A model generated the notes under the pieces. The model was given only the letters and a program-made list of their open reading frames with translations. It did no database searches and was not told the origin of the DNA. Below, piece by piece: positions 3,361 to 31,134 of a DNA stretch of 37,482 nucleotides. How positions within the stretch are numbered: the stretch's first letter is position 1; each line of letters starts with the position of its first letter. The DNA is from a virus (lineage: Duplodnaviria; Heunggongvirae; Uroviricota; Caudoviricetes): IMG/VR virus record IMGVR_UViG_2565956717_000009, positions 1 through 37,482 of that record. One strand, 5' to 3'. Position numbers and translations under genes: made by a program.

Positions 3361-3443
3361 GCATTTACCTGGGCCATATTGACTACTTATAAAATGAGAT
3401 CAATATTTAATCGCCCAATAACGGGTGTATGTTGAGGTATATC

Positions 3444-3623
3444 ATGGCGAAAAAACCAGGTGAAAACACAGGAAAAAACGGCGGAATATACCAAGAAGTT
3501 GGCCCACGCGGCGGTAAGAAAGACAATTTTGCAACCGTCAAGGACAACGAAAGGCTTCCACCAACAACAAAGCCAGGTCATGGCTGGGTATTGGATAAGC
3601 GAACTCCAGACAGCAAAAAGTAA
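3444..3623 (+). CDS. Small Gly/Lys-rich protein, YjzC-like (recollection)
   Basis: 59 aa from ATG 3444 with GAGGT RBS 5 nt upstream; KPGE..G.Y.EVG pattern; possible -35 TTGACT at about 3389. Confidence 0.5.
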   Translation: MAKKPGENTGKNGGIYQEVGPRGGKKDNFATVKDNERLPPTTKPGHGWVLDKRTPDSKK

Positions 3624-3628
3624 TAATC

Positions 3629-3651
3629 AAGCCGGGTCACTCCGGCTTTTT
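3629..3651. terminator. Bidirectional hairpin terminator between convergent genes
   Basis: aagccgg-gtcact-ccggctt followed by ttttt; sits between the 3' ends of 3444..3623 (+) and 3637..4002 (-). Confidence 0.55.
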
Positions 3652-4002
3652 GATATGTCGCTCGCAGAACTCAACAAGCCTGCTCATTAAGTAGCAGTAA
3701 GTCTCGTTGGCTCTTCCTGGTTCAACATCAACACCTACCCTTGAGCAGATATCGAATGCCATGTGAGCGCACTCATGGGCAATAGTAGATAGTTTGCCAT
3801 TGAACACGCCTATCACATGCAAAACACCATTCTCGCTACTCATTGTATGAGACGCTCCGTTGGCGTCCGAGTCATGCACGTCAACGCCAAGTTTTTGATG
3901 CAGGCGTTGCCATTCTGGAAAGTCTCTACAAAACACAATTGTACCGCTCTCAAAGAGCGGAACGAGCATCTTTGGTACTTTTCCAATGTTAACTTTTTTC
4001 AT
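3637..4002 (-). CDS. Small HExxH-motif protein (putative zinc metallopeptidase-like; ImmA/IrrE-like is a guess)
   Basis: 121 aa; HECAH at residues 76-80; AGGA upstream of ATG; A+T-rich coding sequence; no transmembrane segment evident. Confidence 0.5.
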   Translation of the reverse strand: MKKVNIGKVPKMLVPLFESGTIVFCRDFPEWQRLHQKLGVDVHDSDANGASHTMSSENGVLHVIGVFNGKLSTIAHECAHMAFDICSRVGVDVEPGRANETYCYLMSRLVEFCERHIKKPE

Positions 4003-25494: not shown

Positions 25495-25764
25495 TCATTG
25501 CTTCATCTCCCTTTCCATTTCATCAATGTCAACGTCATCAGGAAGATGGGAGCAATACGCCTCTATACCATGATGATTTATCTCATACCCTTTGAACGTT
25601 ACCATCTGGCGCGTAATCTCAACTTCGTTCAGGAATCCGTCATCGCATAACTGCCTGGCTATTTTCGATTTGGTCTGGATTATTGGTAGTGCCTGTTCTT
25701 TCAAAGCGCATGATATTTGTGCATCCCATGCCTTTTCGAGAATGGCTAATTGTTTTTTATTCAT
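25495..25764 (-). CDS. Hypothetical protein downstream of helicase
   Basis: 89 aa, start overlaps helicase stop; not recognised. Confidence 0.45.
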
Positions 25765-27137
25765 ACGTCAGCCCCTTGTGCATATCGTCTGCCACGCGCA
25801 GCAGGTGCATTTGATGCTGTGCAAATCTGTCTGGCTTCATCCTGGTCACATGCAACAAAGTGTCCGTTGCAGAACCGCTGGTAAACCGTACCAAGTGAGC
25901 CAAAACGGTTTTTCGTCACAATGATTTCAGCAAATGGCGCGGCGCTACTGTTCTCGTCATATACCGCTTCCCGATAGAGCATGATGATTGAGTCTGCGTC
26001 CTGCTCAATGCTTCCTGAATCACGCAAATCTGCGTTTGTCGGGCGTTTGTTTGGTCGCTTCTCAACATCGCGTGAAAGCTGACTCAGGGAGATAACAGGC
26101 GTTTTCAGGTCTTTCGCCATCGCCTTCAGGCTTCCGGAGATGTGAGCAATTGCGAGGTCGTTGCGATCTGCTTTCGGCTTCTCAATCAGGCCAAGATAAT
26201 CCGCCATGATGAGTGACAGGTTTGGATTTTCCTGTTTGTGCCGTTCTGCGATTGAGCGTATTTCTTCGACCGATAACCGCGAGGCATCGACTACCCATAC
26301 ATCCAAATCTGCAAGCTGACTCATGCCGTTAGCAACGCGCGCCCAGCCTTCGTCATCCATCGATGCAGGATTTCGCAGCACGCTAACCGACATCCTCCCG
26401 GCGTTGGCAATGCTTCGCTCTGCAATCTGCAATGCGCTCATTTCCATCGAGAAAATCAATACTCCGCGCCGGACGTCAGAACCAGGAATAACGCGGCTTG
26501 CAACGCCTTCGGCAATCTTCAGCGCCAGTTCGGTTTTCCCCATACCAGGACGAGCGGCGATAATCACCAGGTCTTCCGCGTTCATCCCTCCGGTGATGGC
26601 GTCAAGTTCTTCGATTCCGGTCTTCAGGGTATCGGACTCTTCTCCGTTCCTCAGACGCCTGTCAAGCGTGTCAGTGTAGTCAGTGATGATTTCCCCTAAC
26701 CGTACAGGTTTAACCTCGTCACGGGGCTTTCTGATGGCTGAAAGACGCTTTACGAGCTCGTCCATCGCCTGACTCGATGTATCGATGGTTCCGCTCTGAA
26801 TTGGTTCACGCATTTCATCCATGATTTCCAGCACCAGACGGCGGTGATAGTTATCCGCGACCATTCCGGCATATCCCTTCAGGTTTGCGGCACTCGGGCA
26901 GTTTTTGCTGGTCATCAGGATTGACGTGAAATGCTCCTCTCCGCACGCCTCGGCAACCATCAGCGCGTCGATTAGGTTTCTGTTTCGCGCCTGCTTGCGG
27001 ATAACCTCGAAGGCTTTCCGGTAGAGCGGAATTGAAAACGCTTCCGGCTCCAGCGTTGCCAGAACGTCGCTGGCGGTTGGTGTTAATCCACCAATCAGCA
27101 GGCCACCGATAACGCTCGCTTCGATATCCTGTTTCAT
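25761..27137 (-). CDS. Replicative DNA helicase (DnaB-like, P22 gp12-type)
   Basis: 458 aa; Walker [18 protein letters not shown]; DnaB-like N-terminus; ATGA overlap with O-like gene. Confidence 0.9.
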
Positions 27138-28081
27138 GCAATCCCCCTGTCTGCAAACTTCCCTTCCCGTACTCCCGTTAACGAGTCTTCCCTCAGCAGG
27201 TAATCAAAATCTGCCGTCCAGCCCGTGTCGTTGTCTCCGAAGTAAAACGGCTTGGCCTGATGCACAAACGCCCTGACATACGCTCTGAAACCGTCCACGT
27301 TTGGCGTTTTCAGTTGCGGGATGATTTTCTTCAGGCGGCGTTTGCGTTTCTCGTTGACCGCAACAGCGTGTGGCAGTCTGTCACCGACTTCGGTGTTGTA
27401 GGCGTTCAGGAAGGATTCGTAGTCGATTCGTTCTGCCTTGCGACGTTCAGGTTTAACCTGCCCATCGCCTCCCCCATTGGGGGGTAGGGGGGTATTATTT
27501 ATATTCTTGTTAATACCTTCTTGTTCATGATGTGCGGTTGTTTGTGCGGCATCATGTGCGCTTTCATGTGCGGCATGTACGCTGAAAGCCGCGCCATTAC
27601 TGGCTTCATCATGTGCGGCATCATGTGCGGTTGTTTGTGCGGCATCATGTGCGGGTGAATTGTCCATTTTTTGAGCGTATTCATGGTAATTTGTGATGGT
27701 GATCACACGACCTTTTTGCTTCTCTCCATCAATGGTGATCATCCCCTCTTTCACAAAAACCTGAAGCATCCGCTCAACCTGATCACGGCTTGCCGGCTTG
27801 CCATGCCTGTCGCATAACTGAAGACCTAAATCAGCTGCTGTCACAACCAGTTGACCGGGTTGCAGATGCCATTCATGACCTTTGAAATTCGCTTTGTATG
27901 GCTTTCTGGCGGCATTCAGGAGAAGGTTTTCCCACAGGGTGCGAAGATAAACATCTTTCGCCCATGACTGTTTCAGAATGCTCCGGTACAACGGAATGTA
28001 ACCAGTTTTCTGGTTCTCCATCCTGTTGCTCCTGCGCTCGTGTGCGGCGCTGAAATCGTAGATTTTTGCTGTATTGCTCAT
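27134..28081 (-). CDS. Replication initiator, lambda O / P22 gp18-like, with internal origin
   Basis: [13 protein letters not shown]... resembles lambda O N-terminus (MTNTAKILNF...); central low-complexity HDAA repeats encoded by DNA iterons. Confidence 0.8.
27520..27660. repeat. Tandem direct repeats (candidate ori iterons) inside the O-like gene, next to an A+T-rich tract
   Basis: Repeated atcatgtgcggc / ttgtttgtgcggc units; adjacent A+T-rich stretch 27489-27517 (tattatttatattcttgttaatacc), as in the lambda ori layout. Confidence 0.5.
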
Positions 28082-28083
28082 AA

Positions 28084-28356
28084 CTACCTGCCTTGACGAA
28101 AGACCTTAAGAACATCGTTAAACTGACTTACGGATATGTCTTCTTTGAGCAGCTTTTCCAGAAATGCGTTTGGAATGAACGTATATCCCTCCTCTTTTGG
28201 TAGAGACGGGAGCAACGCCCTCGCCTCAGCCTTCAGAAGCTCAGTTCTGGCAACTTTCACAAAAGAGATTTGAGTTCTTTCATCAATGGAACGAAGGAAG
28301 CGCAAACGCTTAACTTCTTTGTGTGTATCAGGTGGATTAAAGCCTTTGTTTCGCAT
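28084..28356 (-). CDS. Hypothetical protein inserted between cII/oop and the O-like gene
   Basis: 90 aa from ATG 28356 with GAGGT RBS at 7-nt spacing; ends 2 nt before the O-like start. Confidence 0.45.
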   Translation of the reverse strand: MRNKGFNPPDTHKEVKRLRFLRSIDERTQISFVKVARTELLKAEARALLPSLPKEEGYTFIPNAFLEKLLKEDISVSQFNDVLKVFRQGR

Positions 28357-28357
28357 A

Positions 28358-28437
28358 TAATTACCTCGCTGGATGTTGTTAAAATTCCATTTGTATTTGA
28401 TCAGAACGCTCGGTCTTGCACACCGGGCGTTTTTTAT
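28358..28437 (+). ncRNA. oop: OOP-like antisense RNA overlapping the cII 3' end
   Basis: Plus strand gatcagaacgctcggtcttgcacaccgggcgttttttattggtgag matches recalled lambda oop 3' end/terminator; 5' end not mapped. Confidence 0.5.
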
Positions 28438-28678
28438 TGGTGAGTCCATCAAGCGCATACTTAAAAGCCCTGCTAATCGGACTGATGTCTGATGCCATTC
28501 CGAAAGCACACAAGACCGAAGCAATAAATCTCCAGTCCGTTCTGCTTATCTTCGATTCATGACAGCCAATCATCTTTGCCAGACCGCGCTTGGTAAGCGT
28601 TGACAGGTTGATGAGTAAATCAGTTTCAGCGCGATCAATTTCTCGCTGTGTTGGCTTGCTGTAACTTGCTTGTGTCAT
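28379..28678 (-). CDS. cII: CII-like transcriptional activator
   Basis: 99 aa; C-terminus ...TNKKRPVCKTERSDQIQMEF matches recalled lambda CII tail; N-terminal region diverges. Confidence 0.75.
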   Translation of the reverse strand: MTQASYSKPTQREIDRAETDLLINLSTLTKRGLAKMIGCHESKISRTDWRFIASVLCAFGMASDISPISRAFKYALDGLTNKKRPVCKTERSDQIQMEF

Positions 28679-28762
28679 TTGTTAATTTTCCAATAGTGAA
28701 TAGTTAGTTGAAAGGTATGCGTGGAAACGCATATGTCCTTAGTTGGTCAGATATCTTGGGAC

Positions 28763-28777
28763 TCGCTTTGTCAGCGA
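28763..28777 (-). promoter_or_regulatory. nutR boxB-like hairpin (P22 type)
   Basis: Minus strand UCGCUGACAAAGCGA, same GACAA loop as nutL boxB; between cro and cII. Confidence 0.4.
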
Positions 28778-28815
28778 CGTAGGACGAATGTCCATTGTGA
28801 AAATAGCGGTGTTAC

Positions 28816-29025
<210 letters not shown>

Positions 29026-29042
29026 TTAGTACATGCAACCAT

Positions 29043-29106
29043 TATCACCGCTAGAGGTAAAATAGTCAACACGCACGGTGTTAGATATTTATCCCTTGCG
29101 GTGATA
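29043..29106. promoter_or_regulatory. Operators OR1-OR2-OR3 with divergent PR and PRM (lambda-type)
   Basis: OR1 29043-29059 tatcaccgctagaggta, OR2 29067-29083 caacacgcacggtgtta, OR3 29090-29106 tatcccttgcggtgata; PR -35 TTGACT and -10 GATAAT on the minus strand. Confidence 0.8.
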
Positions 29107-29113
29107 GATTTAA

Positions 29114-29830
<717 letters not shown>

Positions 29831-29837
29831 CACGTAA

Positions 29838-30275
29838 ATGATTAAAGAACGTATTTCTTATATCATTCCGATTGCGATGGATGAAGGCAACCCAGTAACT
29901 CCAGTTCTTATCTATGAAATGGATAAAGACTCCCATGAAGTGGATCTATCATTTGGCGCTTTTTTTATCGGCCTTAAGGCTACAAAAAAATATTCCATAG
30001 GCATTGAGGTTTTCAATGCTCAAGAAATACCGATACCAATTGACACAAAACTGTACTCCAACCATAAGTTTTTTACGGTAGCAGAAGCCAACGATGGAGA
30101 AACCATCGTATCAACTTCTATGAGAATTAACTTCCCAAGGGTGAAAATTATCAAGCCTGGGATATTCGAAGTTAGAGCATCACTGGTTAATCCTGATAAA
30201 GGCGAAGTAATTGATGTAAAAAGTTCGTTTTTTGACGTGAAGATAACAGGATCGGTTCGCGATGAGTTTAGATAA
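29838..30275 (+). CDS. Hypothetical protein, first gene of the cI-downstream (rex-position) cassette
   Basis: 145 aa, starts 7 nt after the cI stop; visibly A+T-rich; no recognised motif. Confidence 0.6.
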   Translation: MIKERISYIIPIAMDEGNPVTPVLIYEMDKDSHEVDLSFGAFFIGLKATKKYSIGIEVFNAQEIPIPIDTKLYSNHKFFTVAEANDGETIVSTSMRINFPRVKIIKPGIFEVRASLVNPDKGEVIDVKSSFFDVKITGSVRDEFR

Positions 30276-30633
30276 CAAGGTTGCTCAGCTTCGTCCAAAT
30301 CAAAACATATCTCGCCCAATTGGACACTATTCCACTGATGATGCATACTCACGGCATGCTGGAGGAAACGGCGGAGGTAACATGCTTGAGGCTAGAGTTG
30401 CAAAGCTAGAGTCTGATGTTGAATACATCAAGCGCGATCTCGCTGAAGTAAAGTCAGATATAAAATCTGTAGATTCTCGTCTGTCAGGTATTGAGACAAG
30501 CATTAGCTCAGCAAAAATCACCATCAAGGCATCTGCGGTCGTTGTCAGTTTCGTGTTCGCATTTTGCGCCTACATTTTTGGAAGTTATGTTTCCAAAATC
30601 CTTGATGCCTTAAACGGACTCGTTCTTAAGTAA
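30262..30633 (+). CDS. XhlA-like tail-anchored membrane protein (coiled coil + C-terminal TM), second gene of the rex-position cassette
   Basis: 123 aa; Gly-rich N-terminus, heptad-like LEARVAKLESDVEYIKRDLAEVKSDIKSVDSRL, C-terminal hydrophobic ASAVVVSFVFAFCAYIFGSYV; 14-nt overlap with upstream gene. Confidence 0.6.
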   Translation: MSLDNKVAQLRPNQNISRPIGHYSTDDAYSRHAGGNGGGNMLEARVAKLESDVEYIKRDLAEVKSDIKSVDSRLSGIETSISSAKITIKASAVVVSFVFAFCAYIFGSYVSKILDALNGLVLK

Positions 30634-30638
30634 CACAC

Positions 30639-30666
30639 AACCCGGCCTCAGCGCCGGGTTTTCTTT
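30639..30666 (+). terminator. t_imm-like rho-independent terminator ending the cI operon
   Basis: aacccggc-ctcagc-gccgggtt (8-bp stem) followed by ttctttg, 6 nt after the stop at 30633. Confidence 0.65.
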
Positions 30667-30823
30667 GCCTCACGATCCCCTTCACCCAATAACACATAAC
30701 CAATTGTATTTATTTGAAAATTAATAGATACAACTCACTAAACATCGCAATTCAGATCTCTCGATCACCTCCCAAGCCACACACCCCTGCAAAAAAATAA
30801 ATCTATATAAAAAACATACAGAT

Positions 30824-30886
30824 AACCATCTGCGGTGATAAATTATCTCTGGCGGTGTTGACATAAATACCACTGGCGGTGATACT
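30824..30886 (+). promoter_or_regulatory. Operators OL3-OL2-OL1 with PL (lambda-type)
   Basis: aaccatctgcggtgata (30824-30840), tatctctggcggtgttg (30844-30860), taccactggcggtgata (30868-30884); -35 TTGACA 30858-30863, -10 GATACT 30881-30886. Confidence 0.8.
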
Positions 30887-30954
30887 AAACACATCAGCAG
30901 GACGCACTACTCACCAGGGCGGTGAATATACAACGATTCGAATATGAATCTACG

Positions 30955-30969
30955 GCGCTGACAAAGCGC
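30955..30969 (+). promoter_or_regulatory. nutL boxB (P22 type)
   Basis: GCGCTGACAAAGCGC matches recalled P22 boxB; lies in the PL leader upstream of N. Confidence 0.5.
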
Positions 30970-31134
30970 AATAACCAAAGTGAACTTTGGGGTGTGGTGA
31001 AGGGTTCATGGACGGGAATATGTCGCACGTAAAGCGGCGAGGCCTGCGGGACTATTGCCGAATTGAAGTAGGCCGAAACAGGTCGAAATGGGTCTCCCAC
31101 CTACCACACCACCAAAGTTCATCAGGAGGTCTAT

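Follow-up and report, generated by a model that had tools for sequence, protein, structure and literature searches.

A Selected 90-Codon Gene between cII and the Replication Initiator

An open reading frame (ORF) of 90 codons separates cII from the replication initiator gene in the window, by which we mean the whole 37,482-nt stretch of viral DNA that was analysed. We conclude with high confidence that this ORF is a genuine gene that belongs to the replication module, is maintained by selection, and derives from the head of an O-type initiator.

The minus strand of the window carries an early-right region of lambdoid type, to which the ORF belongs. The cI gene is found at 29117–29830 (plus strand) in a lambda-like immunity region, the cro gene (28816–29016, minus strand) encodes a protein with 65 of 66 residues identical to lambda Cro, and the promoter pR (29069–29041, minus strand; TTGACT-17-GATAAT) was found by a strict sigma-70 scan. 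The cII gene (28379–28678, minus strand; Pfam Phage_CII, E = 5.5e-35) ends at 28379 and is followed after 22 nt by the ATG of the ORF, which occupies 28084–28356 on the minus strand and consists of 90 codons and a stop. A GAGG Shine-Dalgarno sequence (28364–28367, minus strand) lies 7 nt upstream of this ATG. The initial annotation had described a 90-aa ORF with a good ribosome-binding site between cII/oop and the initiator, and this description (GAGG-N7-ATG) was confirmed. Two nucleotides after the ORF stop begins the gene of an O-like initiator of 315 aa (27134–28081, minus strand; phrog_345; Phage_rep_O, E = 3.7e-15, residues 20–132), whose first 10 residues match MTNTAKILNF of lambda O. 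Its downstream partner in the replication module is a DnaB-type helicase of 458 aa (25761–27137, minus strand; DnaB_C, E = 9e-78). By its make-up, an O-like protein together with a 458-aa DnaB-type helicase, the module resembles Eru2 of Stx phages (PMC8044961). Located downstream of pR, the ORF is presumably transcribed from that promoter and, judging from its position, should be silent in lysogens.

Coding signal in relatives, on which the initial annotation had made the reality of the ORF depend, proved to be strong. Homologues for which the DNA could be recovered, at 71–81% aa identity, came from Scandinavium, Salmonella, and metagenome assemblies. Pairwise Nei-Gojobori comparisons with diverged relatives gave dN/dS values of 0.06–0.14, at dS values from 0.5 to saturation. 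Among seven diverged homologues, the first, second, and third codon positions were variable at 27, 25, and 78 of 90 sites, respectively, that is, at 28–30% of the first and second positions and at 87% of the third, and only the annotated frame was open in all seven. The 90-aa ORF was intact in all 80 IMG/VR loci, and 278 of the 279 E. coli genomes with the gene contain a stretch that spans 80% or more of it. The protein has the same size (86–93 aa) across lineages down to 51% identity, and the distant members (51–63% identity, 90–93 aa) retain both the size and the conserved motif described below.

Distribution and Catalogue Entries

A homology search with the 90-aa protein returned a partial match to Phage_rep_O and a full-length match to PHROG 2519, a family with the database label "function unknown" (E = 2.2e-57, positions 1–90 of 90). 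The catalogued members of this family, with 97–99% aa identity and the same order of cII, ORF, O, and DnaB-type helicase, showed no material difference from the window copy. One of these is Kapi1_024 of phage Kapi1 (QOC59542.1), a hypothetical protein whose notes cite PHROG 2519 and CDD Phage_rep_O, and the Kapi1 gene order (cII / ORF / O / DnaB) is the same as that of the window. Hypothetical proteins are also annotated in TL-2011a, JEP4, HF4s, and Gally, and PGAP likewise calls the gene as hypothetical. The gene is thus already known as an annotated hypothetical protein of published phages, and its novelty is lower than the initial annotation had implied. The literature yielded no functional data, experiment, or publication on the gene, and searches of NCBIfam and PADLOC gave no meaningful match for the protein.

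By tblastn, the ORF was detected in 57 phage records, including 49 of Stx2a-converting phages; the other records include CUS-3, TL-2011a, JEP4, HF4s, Gally, and two others. The records of CUS-3 and of 48 of these 49 Stx2a phages contain the gene without an annotation. Among complete E. coli genomes, 279 of 5426 (about 5%) contained the ORF, while only 2 of 185,579 species-representative genomes did. A word-indexed search of 5.8 billion proteins recovered 34 clusters, and 15 matches emerged when 1.84 billion representatives were searched exhaustively with a profile; they were always located between cII and the initiator and, leaving aside two large proteins of several domains and ORFs that were fused or called wrongly, were 52–93 aa in length. 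PHROG 2519 is a small family, confined to the prophages of Enterobacteriaceae. The gene matters in that it occupies the core early region of prophages carried by about one in twenty complete E. coli genomes and by the Stx2a-converting phages mentioned above; it has been proposed that virulence depends crucially on how efficiently Stx phages replicate (PMC8044961).

The oop Region and the Comparison with Lambda

In lambda, cII ends at 38653 and O starts at 38686, so that the gap measures 32 bp, in agreement with the approximately 30 bp given in the initial annotation. The homology of the window with lambda covers the 3' end of cII and oop, breaks past the cII stop, and resumes at the initiator start codon (window, ATGAGCAATACAGCAAAAAT; lambda, ATGACAAATACAGCAAAAAT). 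Since the homology resumes exactly at the O start, approximately 275 bp (the ORF plus 2 nt) appear to have been inserted precisely there relative to lambda, which bears out the earlier description of the ORF as extra.

A transcript from pO in lambda runs leftward and ends at tO, with 52 bases overlapping cII, and cleavage of the OOP-cII hybrid has been linked to RNase III (PMC5869508). The corresponding RNA predicted for the window is approximately 70 nt long (28368–28437, plus strand, with the 5' end deduced from the −10 element) and complementary to the spacer between cII and the ORF and to the last ~59 nt of cII. The alignment of window positions 28382–28436 to the 3' 52 nt of lambda oop contains two small gaps and few mismatches, while the 5' third of the RNA (~25 nt) is not conserved with lambda. 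As in a lambda-type OOP module, an intrinsic terminator lies opposite cII, within the cII 3' end: a tO-like hairpin of 12 pairs, 6 of them G-C, followed by a T-run (28403–28433, plus strand). The predicted RNA fold had a free energy of −20.3 kcal/mol (z = −2.35). The hairpin was kept in all 13 phages compared (the window, 11 relatives, and lambda), with compensatory double changes at 3 of the 12 pairs, and the oop patch was conserved across cII types. The claim that an OOP-like antisense RNA is conserved together with its terminator therefore held for the 3' end and the terminator of the predicted RNA. A scan of positions 26000–31000 against Rfam gave no relevant family, the sole match being a chance miRNA match.

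The initial annotation had expected the oop promoter to fall inside the ORF, and a candidate was found there, at about the position that a pO some 70–77 nt upstream of tO would have. Its −10 element is a consensus TATAAT (28356–28361, plus strand), the first base of which is the complement of the A in the ORF ATG, and its weak −35 element, TGGATT (28333–28338, plus strand), lies inside ORF codons 6–8 at a spacing of 17 nt. The motif around the −10 element, AATTATATGCGAAA, was invariant in 13 loci, as was the combination of GAGG and AATTATATG conserved in 13 of 13 loci, and the −35 element was variable among loci. The strict sigma-70 consensus scan that called pR did not call the candidate pO site. 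In lambda, the −10 element of pO (CATAAT) covers the O ATG, and the −35 element (TTGAGT) lies in early O codons; the −10 element of the window is thus the stronger and its −35 element the weaker of the two. The predicted 5' end of the OOP-like RNA falls just short of the ORF Shine-Dalgarno sequence, as it likewise does in lambda. The two systems share the 3' 52 nt of oop, the terminator, the overlap with the cII 3' end, and a −10 element over the start codon of the gene following cII, and differ in that the gene under the candidate pO is the 90-aa ORF in the window and O in lambda. Judged from sequence, the oop/pO arrangement is the lambda layout with the ORF start in place of the O start, and no new interaction is apparent. 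Promoter activity, an RNA 5' end at about 28368, and any regulatory effect would follow from this layout as predictions. The earlier suggestion that the gene and the antisense RNA influence each other thus stood in part: the candidate pO does lie on the ORF start, but no evidence was found of an interplay beyond that of lambda O. LexA boxes (CTGT-N8-ACAG, at most one mismatch) were absent near pO and the O start, and their total in the window was at chance level.

The immunity region of the window is lambda-like, and the overall identity of CII to its lambda counterpart is only 40%, except in the C-terminal tail, which is near-identical where oop overlaps. This combination of a lambda-like Cro and pR with a divergent cII carrying a conserved tail makes the oop patch look like a crossover point between modules.

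The Junction between the ORF and the Initiator Gene

At the junction of the ORF and O (GGCAGGTAGTTATG; 28079–28092, minus strand), the ribosome-binding purines of O are located within the last codons of the ORF, followed by TAG, 2 nt, and the O ATG. The form GGCAGGTAG-NN-ATG was common to all close loci, and TAG-NN-ATG was present in all 80 IMG/VR loci; in the two divergent loci L018 and L019, the ORF and O overlap by 4 nt. An ORF stop that precedes the initiator ATG by 2 nt or overlaps it, with the purines in the last ORF codons, suggested that translation of the initiator is probably coupled to that of the ORF. The RNA at the junction folded no better than its shuffled versions (z = −0.70), and no structure masking the O start was found. 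A −1 frameshift fusion of the ORF and O was considered and rejected: no X XXY YYZ heptamer was present, and going upstream from the O ATG, its frame stays open over 8 codons only.

Short leader ORFs coupled to rep genes under the control of an antisense RNA are known from plasmids, namely, tap/repA with CopA in IncFII and repY/repZ with Inc RNA in IncI. The window shares their topology of an upstream antisense RNA, a short ORF, and a stop abutting the initiator start. It differs from them in three respects. The ORF of the window has 90 codons and is under selection at the protein level (dN/dS = 0.06–0.14), which is not what a leader peptide of no importance would show; the predicted antisense RNA leaves the ORF ribosome-binding site uncovered; and an inhibitory RNA structure at the initiator start was not found (z = −0.70).

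The Encoded Protein and Its Relation to the O Head

The 90-aa protein is basic, with 18 Lys and Arg residues against 12 Asp and Glu residues, and the excess positive charge is in its N-terminal half. An AlphaFold2 model built from 19 sequences (pLDDT 82.9) predicted helices at residues 10–23, 26–51, 63–71, and 76–87 and a short hairpin at residues 54–59. The first two helices form a predicted basic helical hairpin (residues 10–51) that is specific to the family and precedes a conserved core at residues 55–88, G(Y/F)xFIPNxFxxxLLKxDxSVxQFNxxLxxF, in which I61-P62-N63, F79, L83, and F86 are invariant in the family.

This core resembles the N-terminal part of the O-type head. The Phage_rep_O profile (PF04492) matched the protein at profile positions 6–39 of 95, with a score of 14.6 bits (E = 0.047) that lies below the Pfam gathering score of 28.7 bits for the whole domain. 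The same part of the profile was matched by 16 of 19 family members, all below threshold, with a best E value of 5.2e-5. A match to the O-like family phrog_678 (E = 0.009) and a BLASTP alignment with residues 26–59 of lambda O (29% identity, E = 5e-4) were also obtained, and the homology to the O head spans approximately 35 residues. The motif in common with PF04492 and lambda O 26–59 is GY..(IPN)...L....DLS..QF..L..(F/L)R, in the same register. A profile-profile comparison with the O heads encoded by the same loci was not significant (E = 0.4), though it was in the same register. These comparisons suggested that the core is homologous to the first strand and the first two helices of the O-type winged-helix head.

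The complete winged helix, with its recognition helix and wing, is absent, as the protein ends at about profile position 39 and only two helices follow the short hairpin in the AlphaFold2 model. With the remaining two-thirds of the domain missing, the protein should not bind iterons as O does. Unlike O-type initiators, it has neither the remainder of the head domain with its recognition part nor a linker or a C-terminal domain, while its 54-residue basic N-terminal hairpin region was found in no initiator; a profile search of 1.84 billion representatives gave no full-length parent initiator carrying these 54 residues. Fold and PDB searches with the protein gave nothing informative: a sequence search of the PDB yielded no match, and a first AlphaFold2 model, built from 12 sequences (pLDDT 63), had no Foldseek match in the PDB and none in BFVD.

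Linkage, Recombination, and the Variable cII–O Slot

Across lambdoid phages, 17 distinct loci were compared at this junction, and each has the 90-aa ORF between a CII-family gene and the initiator. The loci otherwise vary: their cI and cro genes differ, the O heads fall into two subtypes, and the initiator is followed by a DnaB-type helicase in some and by a lambda-P-type loader in others. Among the 80 IMG/VR loci in which the ORF is 98–100% identical to that of the window, the O head was at least 98% identical in every case. Their cII genes were of two types, 22 being approximately 89–96% identical to the window cII and about 56 being 34–41% identical. A constant O next to a changing cII suggested that recent exchange breaks at the conserved oop patch and leaves the ORF on the replication side. 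When more distant loci are compared, the ORF has recombined with both neighbours, and freely so with the O-head subtype. A breakpoint inside the 90-aa gene itself was observed in L016, where nucleotides 1–135 are 76% identical and nucleotides 136–273 are 87% identical to the window; the initiator adjoining this recombinant gene is 98–100% identical to that of the window.

The same O type also occurs without the 90-aa ORF, in Klebsiella and Yersinia phages. In Klebsiella phage Mulock (L020), the slot holds a gene for a 265-aa ParB-HTH protein (positions 1204–2001 of that locus), and in Yersinia phage vB_YenM_210.17 (L021), it holds a 59-aa ORF and a gene for a Rha/KilAC antirepressor-like protein (positions 1068–2001); in both phages, the gene nearest to the initiator shares 4 nt with its start. 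A further ORF of 84 aa is present in the slot of L015 (positions 3442–3696). The occurrence of the same O type with other genes in the slot suggested that the 90-aa gene is accessory and that the slot is variable.

Possible Origin and Function

Most likely, the gene would have arisen by recombination or duplication at the oop/pO/O-start patch, which is conserved, so that the 5' portion of an O-type gene came to lie ahead of an intact O-type gene; selection would then have retained this fragment and shaped it into a separate protein. The product may assist or modulate the initiation of replication without being essential, either by using the O-head surface that it retains to contact other proteins or by using its basic hairpin to contact nucleic acids. 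We see little room for doubt about the reality of the ORF, the selection on it, its place in the catalogues, its fixed neighbours, the geometry of its coupling to O, and its partial homology to the O head. The role as a modulator is put forward only tentatively, and the explanation as a whole, in which the identity of the gene and its proposed role are blended, seems on the whole probable. Weighing against it are an O homology of only some 35 residues that scores below the Pfam cut-off, a profile-profile comparison without significance, a profile search that gave no full-length O-type parent, the uninformative outcome of the fold searches, the occurrence of this O type without the gene in Klebsiella and Yersinia phages, and the free recombination between the ORF and the O-head subtype.

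A somewhat doubtful alternative is that the gene is accessory cargo unrelated to replication and that the cII–O junction is a permissive insertion slot. The protein would then have some other early function, for example, in the lysis-lysogeny decision via CII/FtsH, in host takeover, or in competition between phages. Phages of the same O type hold unrelated genes in this position (Mulock and 210.17), with a 4-nt overlap with the O start in each, L015 has its additional 84-aa ORF, and the 90-aa gene is dispensable for this O type, so that the slot may be no more than a site for cargo. Against this, the segment conserved throughout the family is the O-head-like one, and recent alleles travel with O rather than with cII. 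Matches of note in PADLOC and NCBIfam are also absent, and the position of the gene downstream of pR, where it should be silent in lysogens, likewise speaks against cargo.

It is unlikely, in our estimate, that an initiator head has here been turned into a decoy or regulator, which would bind the O head or its partner, tune or license initiation, and might poison a co-infecting lambda-type O. The 90-aa protein is closer to the lambda-type O head than to the O head of its own neighbour. With its start codon in the candidate pO −10 element and O translation coupled to it, the synthesis of OOP, of the mini-protein, and of the initiator would be mechanically linked. If this reading were true, the cII/OOP lysis-lysogeny switch would be tied to replication.

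We consider it quite improbable that the ORF serves mainly as a translational-coupling device, which would deliver ribosomes to a poorly served O start and carry pO while its peptide is of little importance, as has been likened above to the plasmid rep leader ORFs. The stop located 2 nt before the O ATG or overlapping it in every locus, the O purines in the last ORF codons, and the overlap of unrelated slot genes with the O start would all be expected of such a device. Purifying selection acts, however, on the amino-acid sequence over its whole length, homologues as distant as 51% identity preserve both the length and the motif, the O start is not sequestered by any RNA structure (z = −0.7), and lambda O works without a leader. 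A non-functional scar, that is, a decaying 5' fragment of O left by mosaic recombination, would account for a homology that ends about one-third into the O-head domain and for a site that is a known mosaic boundary flanked by conserved patches, but it is highly improbable and effectively refuted by the selection tests (dN/dS of 0.06–0.14 at saturated synonymous sites, 87% variable third positions against 28–30% at the first and second, a single frame open in all homologues, a constant size of 86–93 aa down to 51% identity, and intact copies in 80 of 80 IMG/VR loci, with 278 of 279 E. coli genomes at no less than 80% ORF coverage).

Under the preferred reading, that of an O-derived accessory or modulator, a selected mini-protein derived from an initiator and coupled to the initiator would exemplify how a gene fragment becomes a regulator at a mosaic junction. 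The gene is at present a catalogued hypothetical protein whose relationship to oop is the ordinary lambda layout; its interest, which would rest on the idea of an initiator-derived mini-regulator coupled to its initiator, appears to be modest.

Additional Features of the Initiator Gene

The first 21 codons of the initiator gene (28019–28081, minus strand) were 83–100% identical at the DNA level in most loci and 65–74% identical in L018 and L019, while the flanking ORF and O body were only 59–78% identical in the same loci. Third positions in this stretch vary at 8 of 21 codons, compared with 78 of 90 codons of the ORF. Its homology is to codons 1–10 of lambda O, the site of lambda pO, and it may serve as a recombination patch or contain a DNA or RNA signal that has so far gone unrecognised.

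An in-frame internal ATG at the end of this stretch corresponds to initiator Met21 (28019–28035, minus strand), with AGGAG located 7 nt before it, and in related loci several gene callers choose it as the initiator start, 60 nt downstream of the one adopted here. From its sequence context, a second, shorter initiator isoform starting at Met21 and independent of the upstream ORF is possible.

Further inside the initiator gene, at 27524–27666, repeats with a period of 12 nt (CATCATGTGCGG / TTGTTTGTGCGG) encode a His/Ala-rich linker. By analogy with the lambda iterons, which likewise lie inside O, these repeats are candidate iterons of the replication origin.
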